Origin: Squalus acanthias
Taxonomy: Eukaryota
Reading direction: 5' to 3'
Assembly (NCBI GenBank): GCA_030390025.1
Contig: CM059431.1
Location: 153,948,001-154,012,000, forward strand
DNA length: 64,000 nt
Every line of letters starts with the position of its first letter. Positions within the stretch are counted from its first letter, which is position 1. Positions 6,916 through 54,000 of the stretch are shown in pieces. The translations under genes were made by a program, and so were the position numbers. The notes beneath the pieces are model-generated. The model did no database searches. It worked only from the letters and a program-made list of their open reading frames with translations, and was not told the origin of the DNA.

Positions 6916-8837
6916 TGTGTATTCCTTTGCCTTGTTCGCCCTTTCCAAATGCATTACTTCACACTTCTCCGGATTTAATTTAATTTGCCACTGTTCTGCC
7001 CACCTGACCTGTCCTTTGATATCTTCCTGCAGTGCACAGTTTTCTTCTTCATTATCAACCACACGGCCAATTTTTGTATCATCTGCAAACTTCTTAATCA
7101 TACTTCCTACATTCAAGTCCAAATCATTGAAAAATACAACAAAAAGCAAAGGACCCAATACTGAGCTCTGCGAACCCCAAAGGAGACAACCTTCCAGTCA
7201 CAAAAACACCCTTCGAAAATGTCCCTTCGTTTCCTGGCTCTGACACAATTTTGGATCCAACTTGTCAATTTGCCTTGGATCCCATGGGCATTTATTTTCG
7301 TGACCAGTCAGCCATGCGGGACCTTATCAAAAGCCTTGCTAAAATCCAAATTGCATCAAACGCACTGCCCTCATCGACCCTCCTTGTTACCTCCTCAAAA
7401 AATTCAATAAAGTTAGTCAGACACGACCTTCCCTTAACAAATCCATGCTGACTGTCCCTGATTAATTCGTGTCTTTCTAAATGAAGATTTATCCTGTCTC
7501 TCAGAATTGTTTCCATAATTTTCCCGCCATCGAGATTAGGCTGACTGGCCTGTAATTACTTTGTCTAACCCTTTCTCCCTTTTTTAACAAAATACCACTT
7601 CAGCAGTCCTCCAGTCCGTCGGCACCACAACCTGTAGCCAGAGAGGATTGGAGAATGTTGGTCAGAATCTCTGCTATTTCCTCTCTTACTTCTCTTAACA
7701 TTTCATCCGGTCCTGCAGATTTATCCACATTCAAAAATGCTAAACCCCTTAATACTTCCTCTTCCACTATGTTTATTTAATCTAATATTTCACACTCATC
7801 CTCCCTGATTGCAATGTCTGCCCCGTCCCTCTCTTTTGTGAAATCAGACGCAAATTATTCATTAGGAACCATACCCATATCTTCCACATCCACACACACG
7901 TTACCTTTATGGCCCCTAATAGGCCCTACTCTTACTTTAGTTATCCTCTTGCCCTTAAACATCTTAGGGTTTTCCTTGATTTTACTTGCCAATATTTTTT
8001 CATGCCCTCTCTTTGCTTTCCTGATTTCCTTTTTAATTTCACCCCTGCACTTTCTCTACTCCTCTAGGGTTTCTGCAGTGTTGAGCCCTCGGTATCTGTC
8101 ATAAGCTTCCCTTTTTTCTTTATCCTACCCTGTATGCACCTTGACATCCAGGGAGCTCTAAATCGGTTAGTCCCACACTTTTTCTTTAATGGAAGATACT
8201 TGCTCTGAACCCTCACTAGCTCCTCCTTGAATGCTTCCCACTGCTCTGACACTGACTTACCTTCAGTTTGTAACTCCAGTCCACTTTGGCTAAATCACAT
8301 TTCAGCTTAGTAAAATTAGCTTTTCACCAATTGAGAACTTTTATTCCTGATCTAACCTTGTCCTTTTCCATAACTACCCTAAATCTAACCGAATTATGAT
8401 CAATACCACCAATATGCTCTCCCACTGATACAATGATTTTTCTGAACTATTCTTTATTCTGATAATGTTTTCACTCCCAGTTCTCTCTGAACCTTGTATC
8501 TCCTCACTGGCCCTTCCTTTTGTTGCCCCCTCAATCTGCTAAATTAGTTTATACCATATCCCACAACACTAGTTAACATTCCTGAGAGGATATTGGCTCC
8601 TGCCTGTTACTGTGTAACCCGTCCATCTTGAACAGGGGCATCCTGCACCAGACTTGTCCAACGCACCAGAAAACTGAAGCTCTCCCTCTTGCACCATTTC
8701 TCCAGCCAGGCGTTAACCTGTCTCATTTTACTGCTCCTATACTTACTGGTAGGTGGCATTGGGAGCAATGCAGTGTTTACTAACTTTGAAGTTCTGCTCT
8801 TTAAGATCGTTCCTAGATCCTGCAAAATCTGTCTGTA

Positions 8838-20700: not shown

Positions 20701-22116
20701 TTTTTCCTTCCTGACTTCTGCTTCCATCCTTGTTTCACTTTCCTCTGTCTCCCTGCTCAGGTTCCCAACCCCCTGCCATTTTAGTTAAACCCTCCCCCAG
20801 AGCACGAGCAAACACTCCCCCAAGGACATCGGTCCCAGTCCTGGCCAGGTGCAAACTGTCCGATTTGTAGCGGTCCCACCTCCCCCAGAACCGGTTCCAA
20901 TGTCCCAGGAATTTGAATCCCTCCCACTTGCACCATTCCTCTAGCCACGTATTCATCTGAAATATCCTTCTATTTCTACTCTGACTAGCACGTGGCACTG
21001 GTAGCAATCCTGAGATTACTACCTTTGAGGTCCTATTTTTTAATTTACCTCCTAACTCCATATATTCAGCTTTTAGGACATCATCCCATTTTTTACCTAT
21101 ATCGTTGGTACATATATGCACCACGACAACTGGCTGTTAACCCTCCCCTTCCAAAATGTTCTGCAGCCGCTCTGAGACATCCTTGACCATTGCAGCAGGG
21201 AGGCAACACACCATCCTGGAGTCTCGTTTGCGGCCGCAGAAACGCCTATCTATTCACCTTACAATAGAATCTACTATCACTATAGCTCTCCCACTCTTTT
21301 TCCTGCCGTCCTGTGCAGCAGAACCACCCCTGGTGCCAGGAAGTTGGCTGCTGCTGCCTTCCCCTGATATGCCATCCCCCTCAACAGTATCCAAAGCGGT
21401 ATATCTGTTTGAGAGGGGTTTGTCCACAGGGGCCTCCTGCACTACCTGCCTGCGCCTACTACTCTGCCTGGTGGTCACCCGTTCCCTTTCTGCCTGTGCA
21501 AGCTTTAGCTGCGGTGTGACCAAATGGATAAACGTGCGATCCACTTGTTCCACAGCATCGCGAATGCTCCAGTATGTATCCATTCGCAGCTCCAGCGCCA
21601 CAATGCGTTCTGCCAGTAGCTGCAGCTGGATAAACTTCCTGCACACATGGTCGTCAGGGACACAGGAAGTGTCAACGATTTCACACATAGCGCAGGAGGA
21701 GCATACCACGGCGCCGATCATATCACGGTGCCATGATTAAATCAAATCAATCCCACCAATTATACTATAATTAAATGATATAGGGCCCATGTTTACCAAC
21801 TGTCCCCCAAACACCACAGAGACCCTAGAAACTATAAACCACAAAATTTAAGATTGGAAAAAGGAGAAAAAGAGAAATACTCACCAACTAATCACTTACC
21901 TGCTTTCTGGTGACGTCACACTTTGATTATTTTTTACTACTCTCTCTCCCGCTCTCGGGGCTCAGATTGGTAAGCCTACCTGGTCGCCGTCGCCTTTTAT
22001 TGCCGCCGCCTCGCCGCTGTCGCTCCACCCAGGTCCGCCGCCTCTGTGGGCCTACCTGCTCGCTGCCGCCTTTTATTGCCGCCTCCTCGCCGCTGTCGCT
22101 CCACCCAGATCCGCCA
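17702..22116 (-). mobile_element. Full-length CR1 LINE (5' tandem repeats, ORF1, ORF2, tail), inactivated
   Basis: ORF1 ~21721-20781 (zinc finger, zipper, esterase); ORF2 pieces 20727-17801; (TTTCTATG)n tail; CCTC duplicated at 17698-17701 and 22117-22120. Confidence 0.93.
21974..22116 (-). repeat. Two ~76-bp GC-rich tandem units at the CR1 5' end
   Basis: GCCTACCTG...CCTTTTATTGCCGCC..CTCGCCGCTGTCGCTCCACCCAG occurs twice; a CRE-like TGACGTCA lies at 21912-21919 in the 5'UTR. Confidence 0.8.
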
Positions 22117-23070
22117 CCTCCGTCGATGTCTTCTTGTACTTCCTTCCTCTTCTTCTTTTAGGTTGAGAACGGGCCTTCAATAATACACATTGAAGGTTCC
22201 TTTTCTGCGCGCCAAATCAGGTCTCGGTCTTTGTAAGTTTTGGCGGGTCGTCAACAGTCACTGGTTTGTTAAGGTGTGAGGTGGTTCCAGGATGGACCCA
22301 TCCCGTTGATTTGCCACTTAATCTGAGTTTGATTGTTGCTATATTTTGGGTTTTCTTGGCTGGGCCTATGATTTGTATAGAGTATGCCGAAGTAATCTGT
22401 TTTATGCATGTCTTAATGAGCTCTGTAACTTTGGGGTGGAGACTGGTTTTCCTCGGGCTTATTGTTAGGATGCTATTGTCTGATAGGGGCCGATTTAAAC
22501 TCCCAGCGAGATCATGCGGTTCCCCAGACAGTTCCCATTAGCTCCAATACCCAAACTGTTTTTACAGAGGTTGAACTCACCTTCCTCCACAGCTTTTTCT
22601 CCCTTACAAGCCCAGACATGTTTGAAAAGTACCAAATCTTGGTTTTTGCTCAACAGGTCCTCCGGTTCGGCCCAATGCACTTCACCACCCTGTAATAGCT
22701 AGAAAGGAGTCCAAAGTCTTTTTCCTTAGGGTTTGTCTTCGAGTTTTGGGGAATCTCTGAATTTTGAGAATATTACAGTTCCCGCTGTGATACTTTACCA
22801 GCTAGAGTATCATACCGGGTGAGCAAAATTCCTGATCCTCGAGAACCAACCTTCCCCTGCAGTTTACCTATCTAAGACCCAAAACACACATTTCTCTGTT
22901 GATATAGTGTTCAGATGCAGGCACAGGTAAGAATCCAGTTACATTCACATCCAAGCATGGAGGGGGTCCCACACCCCTGCACCAGTTGGAAAGTATTACA
23001 TACATAGCAAAAATAATAATACACATTCACAAAAACTTTATTCATTTTAATAAAACAATTCAGACTCGCC

Positions 23071-25416
23071 CTAAACCTGGCCATAGGCTTTATTGTAATG
23101 CTGGTCCCATTCTTTCTCATGTCGGGATCGGAACACTCTGTCCTTTCCCTTGCATTTTGTGCACAGTAAGTAGAGAAGTATGCCAAGCTGGCAGACCAAT
23201 AAAATATGGGAAGCCATTCTAATCCAGAAAGGGACCTCTATATTTTCGAAAATATCCCACCAGGGTGGAATTATGATGCCTGAAATCTCGGCCCCTATCT
23301 CGACTGTCTTTTGTTCCAGAGTGTAGAAATGTTGTTGCGATACTTGTACTGCTTTGAGTAGGGCGGTAAAATGTTCGGGTAGAGGAGCAATCTTATAGCC
23401 GAAGAATGTGACATACTTTTGCAGATTGGTAATGTTTTCCCTGACAGTGAGGTGAACAGTTGAGGTTTCAGGAATCGGTACAATCCGTTCCTGGGCCACT
23501 TGAACTTCTGCCTCGGGTTTAAAGCAGAAACTACTGTCACTTACCGGACACCAGATGTGCTGTCCATGGTGGTAGTGGGGCGCACTTGTGGTGACACGAT
23601 ATGTCCCACCCCCTATGAATGCTACCTATGGGGGAACATGGCCTTGTGCCATTACCTCCATGCTACAGTTGATATTTCGTGCGCCAGCAGCTTTAAACCC
23701 ACACTGTGGTCTAGAATAGGCATTCAAGTGCTGGGGACACAGTATTATGTGTGCACCCCGGCTCCGGCACCTGGAGAGTTCAGTACCCGTCATAGCGTGC
23801 TCCCACTTTATGACATAAGGTGGGACCGCTGCGAAACGGACGTGTGCACCCCCTTGAATGACCCTAATGTTCTCCACCCTTTATACCGGTGCGGGACGGG
23901 CTGTCCCACCCATGACCGGCATCCTCACCACTATCCACATGATAGAGTGATTGAAACGCCCACAATCTACAGGGATTGGGCAGGCTTCAGAGGCTAGGCG
24001 GAGTTGACATGGGCTCAGCGAATTGCTAAACGGGAGGAGGGCTGTGAGGTGTTAGTTGCTAATCCAGGAGGGGACTAAACTTTGTTTTATATCCTCCAGG
24101 TTGCTGCGGCCCTCGCCCAGCAACCATGCCCCGTATAGCACACACACCTCATTCTGTGCAGCCTGATCCGAAGCATTCCTATCCTCCCGTATGAGTGCAT
24201 TTACTGTTTTTGCGTGTCTCTCCAGCTCAGAAATAATCTCCTTTAAATGGACCGTCATAGTTTGGTCCTCGTGTAGCTCTGAGTTTAAAACTGTGTTTTC
24301 TTCCGTTAGGATCTTTCTCAGTTGTGTTTTTAGACCATGTATCTGTGTTTACTTTTCTATATCGTCCAGGCTATTTATGACAGAGGATCCTGTATTGCAG
24401 GTTGTGAAAATATCGTTGCAGGTCCCCCTTCTCTGTCTCCCTGCGCCCATAGTATGCTCTGCGTGTAGTTTGTACAGCTCTGCTTTGTCTGTGTTGGCAA
24501 AGTCGAATTCGTAGAATTTCCTAAACATCTCTTTCAGCAGGGCCTGGTATAGCTCTTCTGTCTCCTTAGGACACCACTCAGGTAAGTCTACCTCGGTAAG
24601 GTTTAGGATCACTGAAGCTATTGCATATTGTACCCCCTGGCAGAGTACATTTTCGGTCGGCACTAGCACTAGCACATTCTCTGGTCCCTTGGTGATGGTA
24701 GGACACCTCTCTATCACTGTCCGTGATGTCGTGGGCGTGGGCAGGGGCTTTCGTGGGCATGCTAGTAGTTCGGTGGCGTTGACTGGGATCGGGGAGTGTG
24801 GGAGCGTACACCCATGTAGGCTAGAGTCCCACCCCATCCCCTTCCCGGCATCTTGCCATTGCCTGGAGAAGATGATGGATATGCCTGTGGGGCAGTCTCT
24901 CTCTGATCCTTTCATACAGACATAGATTCCCTGTTCTGACTCCCACCACTTGTCCCAACAAACACTCACACCCCCTTAGGTCCCTGTGATCGGCCGGTAG
25001 CTGTCGTTCCCCATTCGTTCCCAGCCAAATGTACGGTCCCCTATGTCCCTCCTCAGCTTCCTGAGCCACCACCACCTATCCAGGGGAATCCGTCCCTTGC
25101 AGGTGAGACACACATGTTTCCCCTCAGTGACACTGTCCCTTTTGACAACGACCTGTACCCTGGGGCACGGGATGGAGGCCTCCCCGTATGTGAACCCGGT
25201 CTGGCTGGAGTATTCTGTAGAATAAAACCCCAGCCACCCTGGCCAGCTTCCCTCATGGAAGTAAATAGCGAGCCCCTCCACACCCGGTTTGCCACCCCCA
25301 GCTGTAACGATCGGCGCTCTCTCTCCCGAGCAGCCATAAATGTGGGAGTCCTCCACGTCACCTTCGTCGCCGATGCTCACCCCTACCAGGGCGAGCAGGA
25401 GCAGAACCCTTGTCAT
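23071..25416 (-). pseudogene. env: ERV envelope glycoprotein, ~780 codons in one frame with several premature stops
   Basis: ORFs starting at 25416, 24969, 24258, 23877 and 23499 share a frame. Signal peptide MTRVLLLLALVGVSIG, furin site RQRR, heptad region, Cys-rich region and TM ILLVCQLGILLYLL. Confidence 0.88.
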
Positions 25417-25429
25417 GCCGATTTCCTCT

Positions 25430-25455
25430 CTGTAGGGACAGACAGAACAAATAGC
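25430..25455 (-). promoter_or_regulatory. env splice acceptor
   Basis: Minus strand CTATTTGTTCTGTCTGTCCCTACAG lies 13 nt upstream of the env ATG. Confidence 0.7.
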
Positions 25456-25579
25456 CCTGTCCCGAGAAGGTTCTCTGGCTTGACAGGTGATCGATTCTCG
25501 AAAATTTAAACTTACTTTGGTAAAATTAACTCACTAAAACTAAAACTACCAAAACTGTAAAACACACCTAAAATACACT

Positions 25580-28309
25580 TTAAACTCTGTACATACGCCG
25601 CCCGTCTCTGGACGGACAGGCTAAATCCTGTATGGCCTCTGTCTTGCAGCTTCTGTGCAGCCTGTACACCTGGGCGTAAGTTGGCCTGTACCGCAGGACC
25701 TTGAGAGTCCTTCTTAAAACAACTGAGGGTTTCCCTGAATCCCTGATAATCCGGGGAGTGTCCCCTCCTGTGCTACAGCACTCCGCCCCATTTGGTGTGG
25801 CTGCTGAGGCACTGTCCTGTCCTGTGGGTTCCTCGCAGCCTGTGGCCGCTGCCTGGGGATCCCTTTTCTTGGAATTACCCCTGACTTTGGCTATTCTCTT
25901 TCGGGTCGCAGCCCTTGCTGGGCTGAACCATTGAAGCTCTGGAGTCCACGATAGTTTTGGCTGTGGTGTGCGAGGAGACCGTCTTAGGACTCCCGCTACC
26001 GAGGGTGCGTCCGAGTCCCACATAATTGGTGGCGTGGCCCCTCCGGTGCGGTCTGTGAGTCTGCCACAGCTGCTTGCTGAGGATCTCTACCTTTAGGGCG
26101 TATCGCCTTTGCTGGCTGTTCCCCTTTCGGTTTAAACAGCTTACACTGGTTCATGTGGAATCACTTTGTCCGGCGGGGCATCGTTATGGCGTAGACCATG
26201 GGGCCTGACTTGTCGACAACGCTGTACAGCCCCATGTATAGTGGTTCCAAACTCTCTACCCGGGCAAAATTCCTAACCATGACCTGATCCCCTATCTCTC
26301 ACTCGTGGTGCTTGCGGGGTTCTAGCAGCAGTCGGTTACTCCGATGCTGTTTTCCCATGTTGCTAGCAGCCTGCCAGTGAACCTGTTTAAGGTTTTCAAA
26401 CAGATTCCTGACGAAGCTGTACCGGTTCACCTCACTGAGCTGAACCTCCCTGAGCACCGGGGCTAGCACATGGGTGGGGGTCCGCATAATCCTGCCAGTC
26501 ATTAGCTGGTGTGGGGAATACCCCGTACTTTTTGACTGGCTAGCTCGGATCCCCATTAGGACCAACGGTAAAACTTCTACCCTCTTCTTGGGCGAGTCTC
26601 CCATTTCCTTCAGTCGCCTTTCCTTAATGGTATGGTTTAACAACTCCACAGGACCCGATCACTGCGGGTTGTGGGCGATGTGCCATTTCCCTTCGATGCC
26701 GAGTACCGTGAGGGTCTTCTGCATGACCTGCCCGGTAAAATGACACCCATGGTCGATCTCCACAAACAGCGGTAGTCCCCATCGTGAGACAACTTCCCTG
26801 ATCAGAATCCTAGCCGTACGCAATGCGGTAGCAGTACGGCAAGGGAACGCTTCCACCCACTTAGAGAACACATAGACAAGGACTAGTTAGTAATTAAAGC
26901 CTCCCTGGGCGGTGGGTAGGGGCCTGATGTAATCTACCTAGATCGACAGCCATGGTCCTTCGACCCTCCTGATGAGTCCCATAGATACCTTCCTTTTCTG
27001 GGGGTCTGGGATGTTAGCAGCACATACCAAACAGCCGGCACAGAACAAGCAGACTTCTTCCCTCAGTCCTGGCTACCATCCTGTCTGTTCCACCCGTTGC
27101 CAGGTGGTCTCAGTTCCGGGATGCCCCGCTCCTGGACCCTCATGGGCCAATTGAAGGAATTCCCTTCTAAGCGGCACCACCCACTGCTCCCCCCTGAACA
27201 GCATGCCTTTCTTAACGGTGATGGCTGCTCTGCCGTACGGGCCCTTTATCTTTTTCCCCTTTTTCAAGGGCGTTCAGGACGGCCTTGAGGAGGGTATCCT
27301 GGGCTTGGGCCTGTTTTAAGTCCGGGGCCAAGGCTACCCCTTAGGTGCCTCCCTTTCTCCGGATTGCGGCTACTGGACCAATTTGCTACGGATCGCAGAA
27401 CACTCCATCCCTGGCCCCCTGTTTGGCCAGCTCGTCTGCCTTACAGTTACTCTCCCAACTGGGCTCTGTCTTTGAATGGGCCTTGACCTTATGGTTATAG
27501 ACCTTCCCTTCCTCCCCCACAGCCGCATGATTTTCTCCAACAGGGGCTTTATGGTGAGGGGTCTCCCATCAGCGGAGTTATTTCCGCGACGGGACCAGAT
27601 GGCCAGGTACTCCGTACACGAATTGCATGTGAACATGCTGTCCGAGCAAATAGTGTATGGTGTAGGGAACTTCTCGGGGTGTGTAACCACGTACACTACC
27701 GCGGACAGTTCAGCCTGCTGGGCGCTCATGGTGCTGGGGAGTTTAATTGCCAGGGCAATGCCTGCCTCCTGGTCATAAACTCCACACCCGGTGAGTTGCT
27801 TGCCAGAAGATACTGTGCTCGAACGGTCCACATAGATTTCGCGGCCTGTGGGGTGTATCCCGGCCCGAAAACCAATATGACTTCCCATACCCCTTCAATG
27901 GAACACCGGTGGGCTGTCCCTGGGTAGATCATTTTGTCCGCGAGCTAAGACTCGCAGAGACCTTTCACCCTTAGGTCCATCTTGGAGAGAAGCAGGGTCC
28001 AGCGAGCAATACGGGCACTGCTCACTGTCCCGTCTTCGATTCTCCCATCTAGGAGCATCTGGGTGGTCGTGTGATTGGTGAGCAGGGTGATCGGAGATGT
28101 GCCTGTGAGGATCAGTGATCTTTTCACAGCCCAGTGAGAGGCGAAGAGGTGCCACTCACAGTTGGAATAGCCCTTCTCCACATCGGTGAGTATCCTGGAG
28201 GAGTAAACCACCGGTCTCAGCCGGTCGTGCCTCTATTGGAGCAGCACGGCACTCAGACTGTCCCCGCTGGCTGCCACTTCCAGGAAAAGCTTACTCTCCC
28301 CATCAATAG
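25580..28309 (-). pseudogene. pol: ERV pol 3' part: tether, RNase H, integrase and C-terminal extension
   Basis: VYSSRILTDVEKGYS (tether); IYVD..SAQQAEL..ICSDS (RNase H); H..GH..CLVC, FSKWVEAFP, IDHGCHFTG and GPVE (integrase). Confidence 0.9.
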
Positions 28310-28696
28310 GTGCAGAACATTCTGGAGGGGGAGGGGGAACAGCCAGTTGTCGTGATACATGTTGGTACCAACGACGTAGCTAAAAAAAGGGAAGAGGTCC
28401 TACAAGTAGAATTTAGGGAGTTAGGAGCCAAGCTAAAAAGTAGGACCTCGAAGGTAGTAATCTCTGGATTACTACCAGTGCCACGTGCTAGTAAGAGTAC
28501 AGAGAACAGGATAGTTAGGCTAAATACGTGGCTTGAGCATTGGTGTAAGAGGGAGGGTTTTAAATTTTTGAGGCATTGGAACCAGTTTTGTGGTAGGTGT
28601 GACCTATACAAAAGGGACGGTCAACACCTGTGCAAAGATGGAACTGATGTTCTCGGGGTAATTTTTGATAAAGCAGTTCGGGAGCATTTAAACTAG
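28310..28696 (+). CDS. CR1 ORF1 C-terminal SGNH/esterase-like domain (5'-truncated)
   Basis: VVIHVGTND, VVISGLLPVP and DGQHL motifs; open to TAG. Confidence 0.85.
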   Translation: MQNILEGEGEQPVVVIHVGTNDVAKKREEVLQVEFRELGAKLKSRTSKVVISGLLPVPRASKSTENRIVRLNTWLEHWCKREGFKFLRHWNQFCGRCDLYKRDGQHLCKDGTDVLGVIFDKAVREHLN

Positions 28697-31638
28697 TATG
28701 GCAGGGGGCTAGAAACCTATGTAGTGAAATAGAGGAAAGTGAAAGGCAGACAGAAATAAATGGTAAAAGGGTGAGGAACAAAAAACAAAGGGCCAAACTA
28801 ATTCATAAAAAATGTGAGCATAAAAAAAGCCTGAGGGTTTTATACCTTAATGCGAGAAGCATCAGGAACAAGGTAGATGAATTAGCTGTGGAAATAGAGG
28901 TTAATAATTATGATCTAATTGGGATTACGGAAACATGGTTGCAGGGTGAGCAGGGCTGGGAGCTTAACATACAGGGGTATTCAGTATTTAGGAAGGATCG
29001 ACAAAAAAGAAAGGGAGGAGGGGTAGCATTGCTGGTAAAAGAAGGGATAAATGCAATTGAAAGGAAGGATATTAACTCAGTTAATACAGAATCTATATGG
29101 GTGGAGCTAAGAAATAGCGAGGGGCGAAAAACATTAATAGGAGTGGTATATAGGCCTCCAAATAGTAAAATAGAGGTTGGGGAGGGCATCACGAGGGAAA
29201 TTAGAGAAGCGTGCAATAAGAGCACAGCTGTCATCATAGGTGACTTTAACTTACATATAGATTGGAATAGCCTAATCAGTAAAAATAATGAGGAGGAGGA
29301 ATTCCTTGAGTGTTTAAGGGATGGTTATCTGGATCAATATGTCGAGGAACCAACTCGGGAACAGGCTATATTGGACTGGGTACTGTGCAATGAGAAGGGA
29401 CTAATTAGTAATCTTGTTGTACGGGGACCCTTGGGTCAGAGCGATCATAACATGATCGATTTCTCACTCGAAATGGAGAGCGAAGAAATTGACTCAGATA
29501 CTAAGGTCCTGAATTTAAACAAGGGGAATTATGATGCCATTAGACGGGAACTGAGTAGGTCTGATTGGACAACGTTCCTGGGAGGACTGGAGGTAGATAA
29601 ACAATGGCAAGCATTGAAAGATAGAATGACAAAATTGCAAAAATTGTTTATACCAATCTGGCATAAAAGGAAATCTAAAAAGGTGACTCAACCGTGGATA
29701 ACAGGGGAAATTAGAGACAGCATAAAATCCAAAGATAGGGCGTATAAAATAGCCAAAAAAAGCGCCAGAGCGGAAGATTGGGAACAGTTTAAGATAGAGC
29801 AAAGGAGGACAAAGGGCTTAATCAAGAGGGGCAAAATAGCTTACGAAAGCAAGCTGGCGGAAAATATAAAAACTAACTCCAAAAGCTTTTATAAGTATAT
29901 CAAGAGGAAAAGACTGGTGAAAACCAAAGTTGGCCCATTGCAGTCAGATACGGGGGAATATATAACGGGAAATAAGGAAATGGCAGACCAACTAAATGCA
30001 TACTTTGGGTCAGTCTTTACGAAGGAAGACACAAAAAACCTCCCTGGGATATCGGGAAAAATAGGGACATTTGCAAAGGAGGAACTGACGCAAATCAATA
30101 TCTCTAAGGATATGGTGTTAAGGAAGCTAAAGGGATTGAAGGCGGACAAATCCCCAGGGCCTGATAACATGCATCCTAGGGTGCTGAAGGAGGTGGCCCT
30201 AGAGATAGCGGATGCACTAAGTATGATTTTTCAGAATTCATTAGACTCGGGAACAGTGCCCATGGATTGGAGGGTAGCTAACGTTACCCCACTATTCAAA
30301 AAGGGGGGTAGGGAAAAAGCAGGTAATTACAGACCTGTAAGCCTTACATCAGTTGTGGGCAAAATGCTGGAGTCCATCATTAAGGATGAAATAGCGGAGC
30401 ACTTAGCAAATGGGGACAGGATAGGACAGAGTCAACATGGATTTACAAAGGGTAAATCGTGCTTGACTAATCTATTGGAATTTTTTGAGGGAGTAACTGG
30501 TAAAATAGATGAGGGAGAGCCAGTAGATGTGGTGTACCTGGACTTCCAAAAGGCCTTCGATAAGGTCCCACATAAAAGATTAGCAGGGAAAATTGAAGCT
30601 CATGGGATAAAGGGGAAAGTATTGACGTGGATAGAGAACTGGCTGTCAGATAGAAAACAGAGAGTTGGAATAAACGGCTCATTTTCTGAATGGGAGGCAG
30701 TAACAAGTGGGGTAGCGCAGGGATCTGTCCTGGGTCCCCAGCTGTTCACAATTTACATTAATGACCTGGATCAGGGAGTCGGATGCAGCATTTCCAAATT
30801 TGCAGACGACACTAAACTCGGAGGGGGGGTGGGCTCAGAGGAGGAGACCAGGAAGCTCCAGAGCGATTTGGACAGACTGGGTGATTGGGCGGATAAATGG
30901 CAGATGCACTATAATGTGGACAAGTGCGAAGTTATCCACCTTGGGTGCAGGAACGGGAGGGCAAATTATTATTTAAATGGCAATAAATTGGGAGAGGGGG
31001 AAGTACAGAGAGACCTGGGTGTTCTTGTACACCAGTCACTGAAGGCGAGCATGCAGGTGCAACAGGCGGTCAAGAAGGCAAACGGTATGCTGGCCTTCAT
31101 AGCAAAAGGGTTGGAATACAGGAACAGGGATACCTTGCTGCAGCTGTACAGGGCACTGGTGAGACCACACCTCGAGTACTGTGTACAGTTTTGGTCGCCT
31201 CATCTGAGGAAAGATGTTCTTGCCATGGAGGGGGTGCAGCGGCGATTCACCAGGCTGATACCAGGAATGGCGGGATTGACCTATGAGGAGAGACTATGTA
31301 GTTTAGGGATGTACACACTGGAGTTTAGAAGATTGAGAGGGGACCTCATAGAAGTGTATAAAATTCTGACAGGTCTAGACAGACTAGATGCAGAAGGAAT
31401 GTTTCCCTTGGCGGGTGAGAACAGAACTAGAGGACATAATTTAAGGATAAGGGCTAAACCATTTAGGACAGAAATGAGGGGGAATTTCTTCACTCAGAGG
31501 GTGGTGAACCTGTGGAACTCATTGCCACAGAGGGCAGTGTACGCCAGCTCATTAAATATATTTAAGAGGGAATTAGATATATTTCTACAGGCAAAAGGGG
31601 TTAAGGGTTACGGAGAGAAGGCGGGGACGGGATACTGA
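28672..31638 (+). CDS. Intact CR1 ORF2: APE endonuclease plus reverse transcriptase
   Basis: Frame is open from 28672 (track: 955 aa from GTG 28771). Motifs YLNARS, GITETW, YRPP, GDFN, SDH, QHGF, FADD and RGH. First in-frame ATG is at 29452. Confidence 0.95.
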   Translation, partial: SSSGAFKLVWQGARNLCSEIEESERQTEINGKRVRNKKQRAKLIHKKCEHKKSLRVLYLNARSIRNKVDELAVEIEVNNYDLIGITETWLQGEQGWELNIQGYSVFRKDRQKRKGGGVALLVKEGINAIERKDINSVNTESIWVELRNSEGRKTLIGVVYRPPNSKIEVGEGITREIREACNKSTAVIIGDFNLHIDWNSLISKNNEEEEFLECLRDGYLDQYVEEPTREQAILDWVLCNEKGLISNLVVRGPLGQSDHNMIDFSLEMESEEIDSDTKVLNLNKGNYDAIRRELSRSDWTTFLGGLEVDKQWQALKDRMTKLQKLFIPIWHKRKSKKVTQPWITGEIRDSIKSKDRAYKIAKKSARAEDWEQFKIEQRRTKGLIKRGKIAYESKLAENIKTNSKSFYKYIKRKRLVKTKVGPLQSDTGEYITGNKEMADQLNAYFGSVFTKEDTKNLPGISGKIGTFAKEELTQINISKDMVLRKLKGLKADKSPGPDNMHPRVLKEVALEIADALSMIFQNSLDSGTVPMDWRVANVTPLFKKGGREKAGNYRPVSLTSVVGKMLESIIKDEIAEHLANGDRIGQSQHGFTKGKSCLTNLLEFFEGVTGKIDEGEPVDVVYLDFQKAFDKVPHKRLAGKIEAHGIKGKVLTWIENWLSDRKQRVGINGSFSEWEAVTSGVAQGSVLGPQLFTIYINDLDQGVGCSISKFADDTKLGGGVGSEEETRKLQSDLDRLGDWADKWQMHYNVDKCEVIHLGCRNGRANYYLNGNKLGEGEVQRDLGVLVHQSLKASMQVQQAVKKANGMLAFIAKGLEYRNRDTLLQLYRALVRPHLEYCVQFWSPHLRKDVLAMEGVQRRFTRLIPGMAGLTYEERLCSLGMYTLEFRRLRGDLIEVYKILTGLDRLDAEGMFPLAGENRTRGHNLRIRAKPFRTEMRGNFFTQRVVNLWNSLPQRAVYASSLNIFKRELDIFLQAKGVKGYGEKAGTGY

Positions 31639-31735
31639 ATTGGAGGATCAGCCATGATCTCATTAAATGGCGGAGCAGTCTCGAAGGGCCAGATGGCCTA
31701 CTCCTGCTCCTATCTTCTATGTATCTATGTAATAG

Positions 31736-33209
31736 CCCCTGGAGCCGGTGCGGTCTGCAGATCTTTCTTTAACTTGAGAAAGGCTGCCTCGCAACCCTCG
31801 TCCAAGGCCCACTCTACACCCTGTGCAGGAGTCAGAGCAGAGGGGCTGCGGTGTCTGCATAATCCTCAATAAAATCTCTGCAGTACCTGGTTAGCCCTAA
31901 AAAGGATCTCACTCCTGTGACTGTGTTGGGGGCTGGTAACTCTGCACTGCTTCCCTCCTAGCTTTGTCGATGGCCCTTTCCCCAGCGTGCATAGTTAGCC
32001 CTAGGAATTTTACTTCCAGTTGACCGATCTGTAACTTTTTGGGGTTTACCTTGAAGCCTTCTTGCCGGAGCAGCTCCAGCAGTTCAGCCAGTAGTGGACC
32101 GTATTCCGCTCCCTCATCGGTAAACAGGAGTAGGTCATCCACATACTGTATCAACTGCCGGGGCCGGCTGAAGCCATTCAAACAATTCGCCATGCATTGG
32201 TGAAAAATGCTAGGGCACTTGTGGAAGCCCTGAGGTTGGCAGTTCCAGGTGTACTGTTGTCCTTTAAAAGTGAAGGCGAACTTGTACTGGTCCTCTCTTC
32301 GTAAAGGGATTGAAAAAGCCCGTTGGAAATGTCCAGCACTGTGAAAGTGGTCGCAGATGCTGGGATACTTCCGATGAGGTCGGCGACGGCTGCTACCGTG
32401 GGTGCACAGGCGGGGATGTTACGTTTGAGTACCCGATAGTCCACTGTGGCCTTCCAGGAGTTGTCCGGTTTTCTAACCGGCCACAGTGGAGAGTTTACGT
32501 GGGTGGCTATCGATCTCAATATCCCCTGTGTTACTAAAGAAGCCATGGCCTTTTCCATGTCGGCTTCTGCCTCCCTGGGGAAATTGTATTGCTTCTGTGG
32601 TTGGGTCATGGGGTCCCCGCTGACAATAACCTCGACCCCGTTTACCCTCCCATAATCGTGCTTGTGATTGGCAAATGCTGCGAGGATTACTCGCACAAAT
32701 GCCTGGTATGCCATCGTAGTGTTACTGACCATTCGTTCGAGTTCGTAACCTTCCTTTGGTTTCAGGGTGCAAAAGTTCCCCTTGCCCTGTTTCCCTGGGA
32801 TGACTGCCACTTCACTTTCTCTGCCGGTACATGCTCCCCACAGACAGTGGTTCCTAAGATCCACTAGAATCCTATGGCCTGTGATAAAGTTGTCCACCAG
32901 GATCCCCGTCCCTTCCCGTTCCCAGTTCATCAAGACACAGGTCCACTTGGTGTGGAGTGCTCCTAAATGAATAGACAGCGGGATGGCGAACGAGCCAGCC
33001 TGCTCGTTACCTGTAAACCCCACTAAACTGTACGGGGCCCCATTAGACAGAGGTGAGGCGGCGGAGTTCGCTGAATAGACTATGGTGCTGAAAGTTCCAG
33101 TATCTAACAGATAAGTGACTTTCATCTTCTCCACTTCCATCTTAACGAGTGGTCTCTTCCATGCGTCGTACTACAAGAGACACAGGTGGACAGGCTGCGC
33201 TGGTTCCAG
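31736..33209 (-). pseudogene. pol: ERV pol 5' part: aspartic protease and reverse transcriptase
   Basis: LLDTG; QKQY..NSPLWPVRKPDNSWKATVDYR; FTVLDISNG; QYVDDLLL. Confidence 0.92.
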
Positions 33210-35389
33210 TCATGAGTCTGAGTTGGGGGGTGGGGGCAATGGGGCTAAAGCACCAGTGGCGGTGGCAACTTTCCCCGGGCCGTTGACTAGAGCTCGGATT
33301 ACGGCCATGACCGAGTCTAGCGTGGGGGAAGTGGTCGGTGCTTCGCTGCTTGGGGCAGGAGCTGGGGAGTTCTTCCCTACGTTATACTTCCACGGATTCC
33401 TACAGTCTTTTCTCCAATGCTAAATCTTCTCGCAACCGAAGCAGTTACGATTCGTGTCGGAAGCTTCCTGGTGCCACTCTTTCCTGTTACTAGGCCTTAT
33501 TAGGGCAACACTGTGGCATAGTGGTTAGTACTGGTGCCTCATAGCGCCAGGGACCCGGGTTCGAATCTTGACCTCGGGTGACTGTCTGTGTGGAGTTTGC
33601 ACATTCTCCCCGTGTCTGCGTGGGTTTCCTCCGGGTGCTCCGGTTTCCTCCCACAGTCCAAAAATGTGCGGGTTAGGTTGATTTGGCTATGATAAATTGA
33701 CCCTTAGTTTTACGGGGGGATTAAATATGTGGGGTTGTGGGGATAGGATGGGATATGTTAGGGGGAATTAAATACGTGGGGTTACGGGGGTAGGGTGGGA
33801 TATGTGTACTGTGGGGATTAAAGCAGGGACATGGTACTGGATTTGGATGATCAGCCAATATCGTATTGAATGGTGGAGCAGGCTCGATGGGCCGAATGGC
33901 CTACTCCTGCTCCTAGATTCTATGTTTCTATGTTTATTTCGTGGATCTTTCCCTCAGGTGGGTGCTCTTCTGTTCCTCTACCATTCCGGTAAGCCAGGGC
34001 CAGTGGTCTGACCACTGTCTCCTCGGTGACCCGGGGGTCGTTCGGGTCAAACCACAGCTCAGATTGGCCCTGAACTGTGGCAAGCTGTTTGCCACTCGGC
34101 TTCGGAGCCAGTGGGCCAGCTCATTCTGATTCAGGTGAGCCCGGTCGAGAACCCCATTACAGGCTCTCCTGTACACAGGCCACAGTCGGTCTGTGAATGC
34201 CTGTGGGGTCTCCCCTACTAGCGGGGTTGTCTTCTCCACCCAGGAGAAGGGACAACCATCATTAATTCCCATGGCCTCCAGAACTTCCTCCCGGATAGCA
34301 GCGTATCCACCCTGCCCTCTTTTACACTCTGCAGAGAGGGACTGGTAGATTTTCCTATCTAGGGAGAACAGGAGCATTTTTGCCAGCACGGCATCATCGC
34401 AGACTTTGATACCCGCTGCCTGTTCCACTTCCATGAAGTGGACTGAGGGGTCTCCTTTTTGGGTGAGCTTGCCCAGGTTTTTTTATCATAGACTTAAGCT
34501 GTTGGGTGCCATGCGGAGCCACGAATTGGATTTCAAGGGGTCCTTGACTCCCACCACGACCGGGCGTGCCAAACATTTGCTGCCGGACCGGGCACATCGG
34601 CCCCGGCTCCGACGTTTACTGCATTGGTTCGCCCTCCCCTCCCTGCTGCCAAATCGAGTCAAAACCCGGCGCCACAGGTGGTGGTGTACACTCCCTGCCA
34701 GCCTCACAAATCGTCCGTCCCTCCTGCTGCCAAACCGGGTCGTTCCCCGGCGCCACAGGTGGCGTCCGAACAGTTTGCCTTTGCATTTCCAGTTCCACCC
34801 GGTCCGCACCCGGGCTTAGTCGGCATACCACGCCTTTCGCCCTGGACAGACCAAGGATCAAGCTCTCGATTTGTTTCTGGCAGGGACCGTCATCTCCCGC
34901 CTCATATCCCCTCGTGTTTGCTATCTTGTAAGCGGCCTGGACGCCTCTCAACCTCTCCTCCTTCTCTCTTACTTGTTTGGCCAGGCGAGTGTTCTCTTCC
35001 CGCAACAACAGTTCACTGGTTTTAGCTTCGGTGACCTGACACTGAAAATATTCCTGCCTGTCTCCGTGTGTTTCCACTAGCTGCATTTTTTCCTGATTTC
35101 GGATGGTTAACTCATTCAGTAATGTTTCCCCTGCTAGGGCCCTTGCTTGAGACAGCTGAGCAGACACCTGCAGTTCTGCCTTAAGTGCCTCAACACGTTT
35201 GTCTAACAGATGGATCTGTCGCTGGGAGCAGGTCAACCAGATGGCCTTTTCCACAGATTTCTTGTCGTCCTTGCTCTAAGTCCATTTAGCTGCAGCGTCT
35301 ATTGGACGCTCAGCACGCAACAGACTGAGTAACCATTTCTTGGTTATGTTCACTTTCTCGAACACATAAGAGGAAATTCTCACTTCCAT
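33210..35389 (-). pseudogene. gag: ERV gag: coiled coil, Pro-rich repeats, capsid-like region, CCHC knuckle
   Basis: AAGATGG start at 35389 is in frame with ORF 35254-34616; capsid-like GETPQAFTDRL; CFGCEKI*HWRKDC at ~33400-33445; TGA at 33212-33210. Confidence 0.82.
33502..33933 (+). mobile_element. Full-length V-SINE (HE1-like) with CR1 tail, inserted in gag
   Basis: A/B boxes, V-domain, duplicated G-rich unit and CR1 3'UTR; TTATT duplicated at 33497-33501 and 33934-33938. Confidence 0.92.
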
Positions 35390-36929: not shown

Positions 36930-39900
36930 GAGGCAGTCACGCCCCTTCCGTTAGGTAGTGGCACAGGTCTGGTTAGTGTTCGGGGTCAGGAGGGTGTGGA
37001 CTGCAACTCAGGCAGGTAAGGGGACCCCGGGTGCCGTGCTGGAGGAGCCTCAGCCTTTGTCCTTGTCCAACAGGTATGAGGTTCTTGCTTCAAGTGTGGA
37101 TGAGGGAAAAACCCGCAGGATGGATCAGCAAGCTGACCATGGCACCATGGTGCAGCAGGACATTCAAGTGGGGTGTGTGAAAGTAAATGTAGTTGAGGTA
37201 GGGGCAGTATAATCATGGCGATAGATACTGTTCTCTGCAGCCACGACCGATTGTTCCAAAGGTTGTGTTGCCTGTCCGCTGCCATGGTCGAAGACACATC
37301 CTCGCGGCTGGAGGAGAACTTGTAGTGGCGGGGGCGGGGGGGGGGGGGGTTGCGGGGTGGGAGGTGGTTTCCAGTTGTCGTGGTCCACGTAGGAAACAAC
37401 GATATAGGTAGAACTGGGAATGCGGTTCTGCTGAGGGAGTTCCCGGAGCTCGGATTCAAATTAAAAAGCAGGACCCCAGAGCTAATAACCTCTGGATTGC
37501 TACCTGAACCACGAGCAAATTGGCATAGTGTCAGTGAGATCAGAGCATTGAATGGTTGGCTAAAAATTTGGAGTGGGAGAAATTTATTTCGATTCATGGT
37601 GCACTGCCTTCAGTACTGGGGAAAGAGGGAATAGTTCTGTTGGGACGGGCTTCACTTCAACCATGTTGGGAGCAGTGTCCTGGCGAATCGAATAATTAGG
37701 ACTACAGATAGGGCTTTAAACTAAAAAGTGGACGGGGGCGGGGGGTTGGGGTGTGGTGTCCGGTGTGGGGTAATTTAGAAAGTTAGCGAGAATGGACATG
37801 GCAATAGTGCAAGGTAGCGCTAGTGGTAATGATAACCAGAGTGCGACAGGAAGGGACATAGCGTACAAACGTAAGTGTGCACGAGCAAATAGGGTCAGAA
37901 TAGGGAAAATTGTAATAAGACAAGTTTTAAGGCACTTTATCTAAATGCACGCAGCATTCCTAACAAGATCGATGAATTGACGGCACGAATAGAAATAAAT
38001 GGGTATGATCTGATAGCCATTACAGAGATGTGGTTGCAAGGTGACCAAGGCTGGGAACTGAATTTCATGGGATATTTGACATTTCTGAAGTATAGGCAGA
38101 AAGGTAAAGGAGGTGGTATACCTCTGTTCATAAAGGATGAGATCAGCACAGTCGTGCGAAATGATCTTGGCTCGGAAGATCAAGATGTAGAATCAGTTTG
38201 GGTGGAGATAAGACATAGTAAGGGAAAGAACTCACTGGTGGGAGTAGTCTAAAGGTCACCTAACAGTAGCTACACGGTAGGACAGAGTATAAATCAAGAA
38301 ATAATGGGGGCTTGTAAGAAAGGTACTGCAATAATCATTGGCGATTTTAATCTCCATATAGATTAGACCAATCAAATTGGCAATGGTAGCCTTGAGGATG
38401 AGTTCATAGATTGCATTCGGGAAGGTTTCTTATAACAATACGTTGTGGAACCAACCAGGGAACAGGCTATTTTAGATCTGGTAATGTGTCATGAGATAGG
38501 ACTAATTAATGATAAAGGATCCTCCAGGAAGTGTTATCATAGAATGTAGATTTTCACATTCAATTTGAGGGTGGGAAACTTTAGTCTGGAAATAGTGTCT
38601 CAAACTTTACTAAAGGCAATTGCAAAGGTATGAAGGCAGAGTTGGCTAAAGTGGACTGGGGAAGTAGATTTAAAGGTAAAATTGCAGATAAGCAGTGGCA
38701 GACATTTAAGTAGATATTTCATAACTCTCAACAAAATATATTCCAGTGAGAAAGAAAGATTCTACGAGGAGGATGAACCATCGTGGCTAACTAAGGAAGT
38801 TAAGAATGGTATCAAATTGAAAGAAAATGCATATAATGCTACGAAGATAAGTGGTATGCCAGAACATTTGGATTTTTTTAGAAACCAGCAAAAGATGACT
38901 AAAAAATAATAAAAAGGTGGAAAATAGATTATGAGCGTAAACTAACAAGAAATATAAAAACAAACAGTAAAGCTTCTCCAAGTATATATAAGGAAGAGAG
39001 TAGCTAAAAAAAAAGTGTTGGTCCCTTAGAGGCTGAGACTGGGGAATTAATAATGGAAAACAAGGACATGGCGGAGACTTTGAACACATATTTTGCATCT
39101 GTCTTCACGGCAGAATACACTAAATGAATACCATTAATAATAGATAATCAAGGGGCAAAGGTGAGGGAGGAACTTAAAACAATCACTATCAATAGAAAAA
39201 AAGTACTAGGCAAACTAATTTGACAAAAGGCTAACAAATCCCTTGGGCCTGATGGCCTGCATTCTAGCGTCTTAAAGAAGTGGCTGCAGAAATAGTGAAT
39301 GCATTGGTTGTAATCTTCCAAGGTTCACTAGATTCTGGAAAGTTTCCAGCGCAATGGAAAACCGCTAATGTTACTTTCCTTTTCAAGAAAGGAGCGAGAC
39401 AGAAATCAGGAAACTATAGGCCAGTTAGTGTAACATCTGTCATTGGGAAAATGCTGGATTCCATTATTAATGGAGTAGCAGCACGACTGTTAGAAAATCA
39501 TAGTACAATCAAGCAGAGTGAACATGGTTTTATGAAAGGGAAATCGTGTTTGAAAAATGTATTTGAGTTGTTTGAGGATGTAACGATCAGGGTGGATCAA
39601 GGGGAATCAGTAGATGCAGCGTAATTGGATTTCCAAAAGGCCTTCGCTAAGGTACCAAATAAAAGGTTACTGCACAAGATAAGAGCTCACGGTGTTGGGG
39701 GTAATATATTAGCATGGATAGAGGATTGGCTAACTAACAGAAAACAGAGAGTGAGATAAATGGGTAATTTTCAGGTTGGCAAACTGTAACTAGTGGGGTG
39801 CCACAGGGATCAGTGTTGGGGCCTCAACTATTTACAATGTATTTCAATGACTTGGATGAAGGGACCGAATGTACTGTAGACAGGTTTGCTGAGGATACAA

Positions 39901-51009: not shown

Positions 51010-54000
51010 TATCATAGAATGGTTACTGCATGGAAGAAGGCCATTCGGCTCGTCAAGCCCATGCCGGCTCTCTGCAAGAGCACTTCAGCTTGACCCACAC
51101 CCCCACCCGTTCTCCATAGCCCTGCAAATTTATTTCCTTCAGATACTTATCCAACTCCCTTTTGAAAGCCGTGATTGAATGTACCCCCACCCCCTGTTCA
51201 GGCAGTGCATTCCAGATCCTAACCATTCGCTGCTTAAAAAAGTTTTTTTCTTACGTCGCCTTTGTTTATTTTGCCAATCACCTTAATTCTGTGTCCTCTG
51301 GTTCTCGACCCTTCCGCCAATGAGAACAGTTTCTCTCTATCTTCTCTGTCCAGATTCCTCATGATTTTGAACACCTCAATACAATCTCCTCTAAGCCTTC
51401 TCTGCTCTCAGGAGAACAAACCCAGCTTCTCCAGTCTATCCACGTAATTGAAGTCACTCATAGAGTCATAGAGTTATACAGCACGGATAGAGGCCCTTCG
51501 GCCTATCGTGTCCGCGCCGGCCATCAAGCCCTGTCTAATCTAATCCCATATTCCAGCATTTGGTCCGTAGCCTTGTATGCTATGGCATTTCAAGTGCTCA
51601 TCCAAATGCTTCTTGAATATTGTGAGGGTTCCTGCCTCCACAACCCTTTCAGGCAGTGAGTTCCAGACTCTAACCACCCTCTGGGTGAAAAAGTTCTTTC
51701 TCAAATCCCTTCTAAACCTCCCGCCCTTTACCTTGAATCTATGCCCCCTTTTTATAGACCCCTCTACTAAGGGAAAAAGCTCCTTAGTATCCATCCTATC
51801 TATGCCGCACATAATTTTGTACACTTCAATTATTTCCCCCCCCCCCCACCCCCAGCCTCCTCTGCTCCAAGGAAAACATACCCAATCTGAGCAGTCTCTC
51901 TTCACAGCTGAAGCACTCCAGCCCGGGTAACATTCTGGTGAATCTCCTCTGCACCCTCTCCAAAGCTACCACATCCTTCCTGTAGTGTGGCGTCCAGAAC
52001 TGCACACAGTATTCCAGATGTGGCCTAACCAGTGTTTTATACAGCTCCATCATAACCTCCTTGCTCTTATATTCTATGCCTCGGCTAATGAATGGAAGTA
52101 TCCCATATGCCTTTTTTATCACCTTATCCACCTGTTCCGCCGCCTTCTGGGATTTGTGTACTTGCACACCAAGATCCCTCTGACCCTCCGTCTTGCATTG
52201 GGTCTTACCATTCATTGTGTATTCCCTTGCCTTGTTAATCCTTCCAAAGTGCATCACCTCGCTCTTTTCCGGATTAAATTCCATTTGCCACTGTTCCGCA
52301 TGTCTGACCAACCCATCTATATCGTCCTGCAGACTGAGGCTACCCTCCTCGCTATTTACCACCCTACCAATTTTTGCATCATCCGCGATCTTACTGATCA
52401 TACCTTTTACATTCATATCCAAGTCGTTAATGTAGACCACAAACAGCAAAGGACCCAGCACCGATTCCTGTGGTACCCCACTGGCCACAGGCTTCCAGTC
52501 AAAAAAACATCCTTCGACCATCACCCTCTGCCTTCTGCCACTGAGCCAGTTTTGTATCCAATGTGCCAAGGCACCCTGGATTCCATGGGCTCTTACCTTC
52601 TTGACCAGTCTCCTGTGCGGGACTTTATCGAAGGCCTTACTGAAATCCATGTATACCACATCCACTGCGTTACCCTCATCCATACACCTGGTTACCCGCT
52701 CAAAAAATGAAATCAAATTAGTCAGACAGGATCTTCCCTTGACAAAACCATGTTGGCTAGCCCTGATTAATCCTTGCCTCTCCAAGTGGAGACTGATTTT
52801 GTCACTCAGAATTTTTTCCAATAATTTTCCTACCACTGATGTTAGGCTCACTGCCCTGAAGTTCCCCGGTTTTTCCCTACTCCCTTTCTTGAATAATGGT
52901 ACTACATTAGCGGTTCTCCAGTCCTCTGGCACATCCCCTGTGGCCACAGAGGTTCTGAATATATGTGTTAGAGCCCCCGCAATCTCCTCCTCTGCCTCAC
53001 ACAGCAGCCTGGGATACATTTCGTGCGGGCCTGGGGATTTATCCATTTTTAGACCTGCTAAAACCGCCAATACCTCCTCACTCTGGATGTTAAAATGTTC
53101 GAGTATATCACAGTCCCCCTGCCCTAAATTTATGTCTGCATCGTCCTTCTCCATAGTGAAAACAGATGCAAAAAATTCACTTAGAACCCCACCTACATCT
53201 TCTGGCTCCACATACAGATTGCCACTTTTGTCCCTAATGGGCCCTATTTTTTCTCTAGTTATCCTCTTACCCTTAATATACTTATAAATCATCTTAGAAT
53301 TTTCCTTTATTTTGCTCGCCAGTGTTATTTCATGGCCCCTCTTTGATCTCCTTATTTCTTTTTTAAGAATCCCCCTGCACTTTTTGTACTCCTCTAGTGC
53401 TTCCTCCGTCTTTAGCATTTTGTATCTGCCAAAAGCCCTAATTTTTTTCCTGATCCACTCTCGTATATCCCCTGACATCCAAGGTTCCCTGCGGTTTTTG
53501 GAACCACCCTTGACCTTTACGGGAACATGCTGCCATTGTATGATCTCAAATTCCCTTCTGAAAGAATCCCATTGCCCGGATGCGGATTTTCCTAAAAGCA
53601 GCTGATCCCAGTCCCTTTTGGCCAGATCCTGCCTTATCCTATTAAAATCGGCCTTCCCCCAATTTAGAACCTTTATTCCCGGCCCATCCCTGTCCTTTTC
53701 CATGACCACCTTAAATCTCATCGTATAAAGATCACTGTCACCAAAGTACTCACCTACTAGCACTTCTTCCACTTGGCCGGCCACATTCCCTAGAATTAGG
53801 TCCAGTACCGCCCCCTCTCTTGTAGGACTTTCTACATGCTGGCTCAAAAAGCTCTCCGTGATGCACTTTAAGAATTTTGAACCCTCTAAGCCTTTCACAC
53901 TCTGACTATCCCAGTTAATATTGGGGAAGTTGTAATCCCCCATTGTTATTACTCTATAATTTGCACATTTTTCTGAGATTTGCCTGCATATCTGTTCCTC

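Follow-up and report, generated by a model that had tools for sequence, protein, structure and literature searches.

A predicted −1 ribosomal frameshift signal at the ORF1-ORF2 junction of esterase-bearing CR1 LINEs

Introduction

How the second open reading frame (ORF2) of long interspersed nuclear elements (LINEs) is translated is an open question, and a CR1 LINE in a 64,000-nt stretch of the Squalus acanthias genome (CM059431.1; hereafter the window, to whose full length all coordinates refer) raises it in a specific form. In this copy, ORF1 ends on the heptamer U_UUA_AAC, its stop codon abuts the heptamer, and ORF2 is open across the same site in the −1 frame. An earlier note on this DNA had proposed that ribosomes slip back at the heptamer to make an ORF1-ORF2 fusion, with a G-rich hairpin or a G-quadruplex as the stimulator. 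Do the ribosomes reach ORF2 in this way? We compared ORF1-ORF2 junctions in the 3.7-Gb genome and ORF1 proteins of other animals, and conclude that programmed −1 frameshifting very probably yields an ORF1-ORF2 fusion in CR1 LINEs with an esterase ORF1, the support being comparative throughout. The proposed fusion is strongly supported by this comparison; the proposed stimulator did not stand as stated.

UUUAAAC is the slippery heptamer of coronaviruses. The available part of PMC3542737 gives X_XXY_YYZ as the rule for −1 frameshift sites. Reviews of LINE ORF2 translation, in the sections available, name re-initiation, internal ribosome entry sites and 2A skipping, and not −1 frameshifting for CR1. 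[quoted passage not shown]

Results

A young CR1 copy with ORF2 in the −1 frame

This is an ordinary CR1, a label that rests on its architecture and on general features of the clade: an ORF1 with a Cys-rich N-terminus and an SGNH esterase, a 3' stem-loop with a short tandem-repeat tail in place of poly(A), and 5' truncation. The closest named relatives of its ORF1 are from sharks and rays, and the tree that we built is a quick tree of the ORF1 esterase only. The earlier note had called the copy intact, which it is not: it is 5'-truncated at 28309 and keeps just the esterase half of an ORF1 that is complete in the sister copy L002 (315 aa). The rest of its description holds. ORF1 ends CAT TTA AAC TAG, with TTTAAAC at 28687-28693; the −1 frame is open from 28672 to 31638; and the first in-frame ATG (29452) lies downstream of the endonuclease SDH motif (29440). 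LNARS, the earliest of the endonuclease motifs, lies at 28846, and Pfam matches to Exo_endo_phos and RVT_1 identify an apurinic/apyrimidinic endonuclease (APE) and a reverse transcriptase in ORF2 (Table 1).

The heptamer is conserved at ORF1 ends

Within the window, the motif is barely above chance, with 21 matches at up to one mismatch against 13.5 expected and 5 of 100 shuffles reaching 21; the significance of the heptamer rests on ORF1-anchored counts and not on window counts. The genome search used a pattern fixed at the ORF1 stop and at the catalytic motif of the esterase, with no constraint on the heptamer. This pattern gave 23,666 matches against 41 in the control, and 21,373 of them (90.3%) carried TTTAAAC, a combination that the control never produced (0 matches). 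Among the anchored ORF1 ends the heptamer diverges by ~1.5% per base, which can be read as decay after insertion. The first T of the heptamer is the wobble base of a Gly, Asp, His, Ala or Thr codon depending on the family, and yet it is T throughout. An X_XXY_YYZ heptamer thus lies in the frame of the upstream ORF, as U_UUA_AAC here and as G_GGA_AAC in the distant elements described below.

The recurrences that the earlier note had listed fared differently. At 37715-37724, the exact heptamer and stop do stand at an ORF1 esterase end, but this copy has lost the −1 phase, its endonuclease match beginning 199 nt past the heptamer. Both decayed heptamers, at 20781-20790 and 8544-8553, proved to lie at ORF1 esterase ends. 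Another exact match, at 42695, is due to chance, its surroundings showing no homology to ORF1.

The −1 phase is kept over linkers of many lengths

The note had also called for a comparison of heptamer and frame across CR1 junctions, and both are conserved genome-wide. Phase was examined on 70 junctions in 16 clusters, and an endonuclease motif could be located in 58 of the junctions: 50 are in the −1 phase, with 4 and 4 in the other two phases. The in-phase linkers have 11 different lengths, from 135 to 213 nt, and contain 7 stops in the −1 frame versus 221 and 343 in the other frames. As for the four unscored clusters, one has an in-phase modal form and the other three are single copies.

Two families looked like counter-examples and were set aside on inspection. 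In one, codon 6 of the −1 frame is a stop in two copies; this is decay, the codon being CAG in 95 of 100 copies. The other seemed out of phase. By hand count, 72 of 100 of its copies have the modal G-run length, and 10 of 19 modal-length copies, read from their translations, run in phase into the endonuclease motif.

No start codon is common to the families

Start codons were compared in 13 clusters from which only copies open in −1 were retained, so that this comparison is no test of phase. No ATG or near-cognate start is common to the families. In the window's family, 0 of 20 in-phase copies have an ATG before the endonuclease, and three further clusters have none either; a Met precedes the endonuclease in some or all copies of 8 of the 12 in-phase clusters, at differing positions. 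The downstream ORF is open in −1 without a start of its own, with the reservation that a Met precedes the endonuclease in some families.

Particular candidates gave the same picture. The GTG at 28771, which the earlier note had named as a possible start, is not common to families. Nor is a CTG at the endonuclease, the initial Leu codon varying among CTG, CTA, TTG and TTA. The ATG shortly after the ORF1 stop is out of frame, unconserved and GTG or TTG elsewhere, and an in-frame AUG at or next to the stop, as in SART1, was not seen. The ATG at 20727, which the note had entered as a caveat for another copy, is in frame, but the codon is Ile in all 12 sister copies examined.

RNA reads run through the junction unchanged

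The RNA data comprised two raw runs (24% and 31% of each covered) and two contig sets spanning the junction. In the two raw runs, no splice joint or indel reached a 5% share at the junction. Depth is ~80 at 28652-28697, without a pile-up of read starts. The lack of joints and indels argues against splicing or polymerase slippage.

A conserved G-run without local structure

No hairpin was found downstream of the heptamer: none of 22 junctions has a stable local fold in the following 60 nt, and the z-scores (−2.5 to +1.4) centre on zero. Nor did folding of these junctions, by a model that leaves pseudoknots aside, give a stem-loop at 5-9 nt downstream, and no Rfam frameshift family matched. The G-quadruplex fails as a general stimulator, being predicted in only 8 of 23 junctions. 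The window's family is not among them; its score of 0.84 is the weakest among families with an intact G-run.

What is conserved is the G-rich run that the earlier note had pointed to. Of 23 junctions, 21 have at least four consecutive Gs in the 40 nt downstream, beginning at +8 to +13 in 20 of them and mostly at +11. In 12 of 13 clusters, positions +11 and +14, both synonymous, remain G while the peptide sequence varies. The junction thus has an unstructured conserved motif ~11 nt downstream, the arrangement seen in arteriviruses.

A long-range partner within the element was sought and no consistent site emerged. Pairing of the junction with the 3' tail is possible, falling in the top 5% of ORF2 windows in 7 of 17 representatives. 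A junction pairs no better with its own tail than with a swapped one (−19.7 versus −20.9 kcal/mol), there is no co-variation over the 17 representatives, one family fails, and the net gain in the window's family is −0.3 kcal/mol. A duplicated 3' stem-loop is present in the CR1 copies L115, L119, L122, L270, L271, L273, L274 and L291. In L119 the junction of one family is joined to the tail of another, which suggests recombination between CR1 families.

Four candidates for the stimulator follow, in order of preference. By analogy with arteriviruses, the unstructured G-run at ~+11 may act through a bound protein, a candidate that we name tentatively. Weak unassisted slippage, aided by a pause at the adjacent stop, is conceivable but somewhat doubtful. 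It is rather unlikely that a two-tier G-quadruplex acts in some families, and pairing with the 3' tail seems a poor prospect.

Naturally fused copies

In one G-run family, a single extra G in the run just 5' of the heptamer joins ORF1 and ORF2 into one ORF. Such fusions were seen in L186, L196-L200 and at G000:C10:958039 and C1:264480596, with open frames of 1,290 and 1,192 aa. The −1 layout is present in 64 of 100 copies of this family, the fused layout in 20 and the third phase in 16. The permanent fusion seems not to be spreading, which would fit a need for both free ORF1 protein (ORF1p) and the fusion.

ORF1 ends in other animals and a second clade

At the protein level only, an LN C-terminus is found in ORF1 homologues of rays, sharks, sturgeon, frog, lizards, turtles and alligator. 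Three proteins in which ORF1 runs into the ORF2 frame (P0036, P0061 and P0138) read FKL at the junction, as TTT AAA CT predicts. No junction DNA of amniotes, amphibians or sturgeon was found in viral contigs, prokaryote genomes, plasmids or phages, and none in the accessible parts of the supplements of PMC4316615, PMC2817409 and PMC2734521, where the matches are to the 3' end of ORF2.

Selection on the distance from the end to the catalytic His retained 82 of 253 proteins, and a quick tree divided them into two clades. The first, which contains the vertebrates, ends in LN in 28 of 31 proteins. In the second, the ends alternate among LN, GN, KN, FF, GF and FL, the codon pairs that X_XXY_YYZ allows. 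A heptamer-compatible dipeptide (GN, FF, GF, KN, FL or NL) stands in the last three residues of 20 of its 44 non-LN proteins, compared with a background rate of 8.2% in the rest of the domain.

A metagenome scan gave four loci, three of them with an ORF1 end, and all three carry G_GGA_AAC with the stop directly after the heptamer or one codon later (one extra codon in L075). In L072, an endonuclease and a reverse transcriptase follow in the −1 frame, in an ORF2 that is 41% identical to that of the window and has Met codons before the endonuclease. The exchange of UUU for GGG with the grammar kept is, judging from these sequences, the strongest single argument for frameshifting.

Eight proteins of this set (P0215, P0216, P0225, P0228, P0229, P0232, P0239 and P0245) have KN 24 residues past the catalytic His, followed by 2 to 12 residues, which suggests a putative A_AAA_AAC site upstream of the stop in this subclade. 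Teleost esterase ORF1s whose catalytic motif ends in HP (P0063-P0106 and P0111), which we take to be L2, are not LN-terminated. One of them continues through a Trp where its relatives stop, a hint that ORF2 may lie in frame behind a UGA and hence be reached by stop readthrough; an L2-type ORF1 query against the S. acanthias genome returned, among the readable loci, CR1 junctions only. Two database entries are of a different kind. P0010, a CR1 ORF1 57% identical to the shark-like one, comes from a 4-kb contig and is annotated as an SGNH hydrolase of Pseudomonas aeruginosa; it probably reflects host contamination. P0148, a 980-aa protein with a CR1 ORF1 esterase at its end and the terminus RALN, looks like a gene model of the host to which a CR1 ORF1 has been joined.

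Surroundings of the copy

The CR1 copy sits inside an LTR-type (long terminal repeat) element on the opposite strand (23000-35300, − strand). Its RNase H is at 27370-27891 (Pfam E=3.5e-10); broken protease/reverse transcriptase-like frames (31909-33170) and env-like frames (24349-25530) were recognized by eye, without a Pfam match. Elsewhere, an ORF at 54637-55389 (+ strand) resembles, by eye, a Penelope-type reverse transcriptase and adjoins a long CR1 ORF2 at 51826-54408 (− strand).

Table 1 Features of the CR1 copy and related junctions in the window
Feature	Position	Strand	Basis or remark
Young CR1 LINE copy, 5'-truncated	28309..31730	+	99.4% identity over 3,424 bp with full-length sister L106; flanks
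Probable 4-bp target-site duplication, AATA	28305-28308 and 31731-31734		Flanks of the CR1 copy
ORF1 3' part with SGNH esterase domain, C-terminus ...EHLN*	28309..28696	+	Pfam Lipase_GDSL_2, E=3.8e-8
Slippery heptamer U_UUA_AAC (X_XXY_YYZ), predicted −1 shift site	28687..28693	+	21,373/23,666 anchored ORF1 ends
ORF1 stop abutting the heptamer	28694..28696	+	TAG in this copy; many families have TAA
G-run at +11 to +15 past the heptamer, candidate stimulator	28704..28708	+	
Out-of-frame ATG mini-ORF, 4 codons	28698..28712	+	By-product of the −1-frame Trp codon; GTG/TTG in other families
ORF2 (−1 frame) with a linker of ~50 aa, the endonuclease (from 28846) and the reverse transcriptase	28672..31638	+	Frame opens after TAA at 28669
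3' untranslated region with stem-loop and terminal repeats	31639..31730	+	Stem also folds in sister tails
Heptamer and stop of an older CR1 family, copy out of phase	37715..37724	+	
Decayed heptamer and stop, one A lost, second CR1 family	20781..20790	−	
Decayed heptamer and stop (TATAAAC) at an ORF1 remnant	8544..8553	−	

Discussion

In the mechanism that we propose, the last two codons of ORF1, which form the X_XXY_YYZ heptamer, would be the slip site. The majority of ribosomes would terminate and release the 315-aa ORF1p, and a minority would slip one base back with UUA in the P site and AAC in the A site. The frameshift product would run ...E-H-L-N- and continue into ORF2 as L-V-W-Q-G..., giving a fusion of ~1,300 aa. 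Such a switch would fix a high ratio of ORF1p to ORF2 protein (ORF2p) and tether the enzyme to the ORF1 particle, in a manner resembling Gag-Pol.

The main competing explanation is that ribosomes terminate at the ORF1 stop and re-initiate, as in L1 and SART1, at a downstream AUG or at none, the heptamer being kept for the ORF1p C-terminus or as a termination signal. Re-initiation is the accepted route in the LINEs studied (PMC2881922, PMC3894237 and PMC5009743, each as far as available), the available text on L1 describes it as AUG-independent, and in several families a Met does precede the endonuclease. It does not, however, predict that the −1 phase should hold for linkers of 11 lengths, that the wobble base should stay T or that UUU should change to GGG; it would also have to do with a post-stop ATG that is out of frame and replaced by GTG or TTG elsewhere, and with no start that the families share. 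A requirement for LN in the protein is at odds with the GN, KN, FF and GF ends. We consider this explanation improbable. Joining at the RNA level, by splicing, by polymerase slippage at the heptamer or through an ORF2 transcript from an internal promoter, could draw on the short T and A runs within the heptamer and on short reads compatible with an internal start. The RNA runs, in the parts covered, show no joints or indels at a 5% share and no pile-up of starts at the junction, and in the window's family even a shorter RNA would offer no ATG upstream of the endonuclease, so that this route is very improbable.

There are two further alternatives. The ribosome might shift here by a single P-site slip or a short hop with the stop in the A site and not by tandem slippage. 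The stop does abut the heptamer in 13 of 13 clusters, although this was built into their selection, and in 28 of 31 proteins of the first, LN-ending clade; the lack of local structure in folding would suit such a shift as well. Both codons nevertheless obey XXY_YYZ, as two slipping tRNAs require, and the presumed site lies 2 to 12 codons before the end in the eight KN proteins and one codon before it in L075. A non-tandem shift is accordingly highly improbable. Finally, active elements might be permanent in-frame fusions to which the −1 layout is incidental, as the fused copies with open frames of up to 1,290 aa would allow. Those examples were chosen for their long frames, and the 64/20/16 split of phases in their family is as homopolymer slippage would give; the idea is already largely refuted and we regard it as barely tenable.

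Several observations weigh against programmed frameshifting, the reading that we prefer, or limit its reach. The stable fold that commonly lies 3' of a heptamer was not found; of the 70 junction copies, 12 escaped scoring and 8 lay in another phase; and re-initiation is possible in the eight clusters where a Met precedes the endonuclease. The junction is known from protein ends and not from DNA in rays, sturgeon, frog and reptiles. In the second clade, 20 of 51 proteins have no compatible dipeptide in their last four residues, and the 82 proteins were pre-selected and are mutually related, which makes p-values too optimistic. Both strands and many copies contribute to the RNA reads, which do not prove the product of an active element.

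Compared with known systems, the junction resembles retroviral and coronaviral signals, in which, according to the available part of PMC3542737, an upstream structural ORF ends on the heptamer and the polymerase ORF lies in −1. It differs in its host, a LINE, and in that no stem-loop or pseudoknot was detected at the usual spacing; since the junction fails this canonical criterion of downstream structure, we set it apart from the hairpin and pseudoknot class. [quoted passage not shown] According to the available part of PMC7939443, that site is unstructured, has a protein-bound motif 11 nt downstream and is driven by nsp1beta and PCBP; both have a slippery site that lacks RNA structure and is followed, 11 nt downstream, by a short motif rich in homopolymer. 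The PRRSV motif is C-rich and directs −2 and −1 shifts, whereas that of CR1 is G-rich, and the likeness is an analogy only. Yu et al. (PMC3919603, part available) report that a G-quadruplex behind UUUAAAC, an efficient slippery sequence, stimulates −1 shifting on reporters. Several CR1 families could form a G-quadruplex, but the reporters used three-tier quadruplexes with a spacer optimum of 6-8 nt, and none is predicted in the window's family.

Among LINEs, L1 and SART1 likewise have a bicistronic RNA in which ORF2 depends on ORF1 translation (available parts of PMC2881922, PMC3894237 and PMC3708506). They make a separate ORF2p, SART1 through a UAAUG stop-start, whereas CR1 has an overlapping −1 ORF and no in-frame stop-start. 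The elements studied here belong to the same class as the vertebrate CR1s with an SGNH esterase ORF1, APE endonuclease and reverse transcriptase of Schneider et al. 2013 (PMC3905857), whose main text contains the word 'frameshift' 0 times. In Drosophila, HeT-A gag needs a frameshift (PMC5009743, part available), but HeT-A has no reverse transcriptase; CR1 is not mentioned in the same available part. We found no published report of −1 frameshifting for CR1 in a coverage that stops short of the 1997 founding CR1 papers and of key papers on LINE translation, and an earlier passing mention is a real, if lesser, possibility. The available parts of PMC5009743, PMC3894237, PMC3708506, PMC2881922, PMC3905857, PMC3919603, PMC7939443, PMC2734521, PMC3159450, PMC5633606 and PMC3542737 do not propose it.

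A broader reading is that the whole esterase-CR1 clade, from sharks to reptiles and including the distant animal lineage, makes its reverse transcriptase solely as a Gag-Pol-like fusion, through a new class of −1 signal that consists of the heptamer, the stop and a protein-bound or 3'-tail-paired G-run without local structure. We put this forward as a doubtful extension.

If frameshifting at the junction is true, CR1 ORF2p would be a fusion of ~1,300 aa that carries the esterase, ORF2 annotations that begin at the first Met would lose the endonuclease, and building an active CR1 would require an intact junction. The junction would be a natural frameshift signal without hairpin or pseudoknot, contained in a 40-nt element. 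Should the broader reading also be true, CR1 would be the first frameshift-dependent clade of vertebrate LINEs, and the switch could couple ORF2 synthesis to particle assembly.

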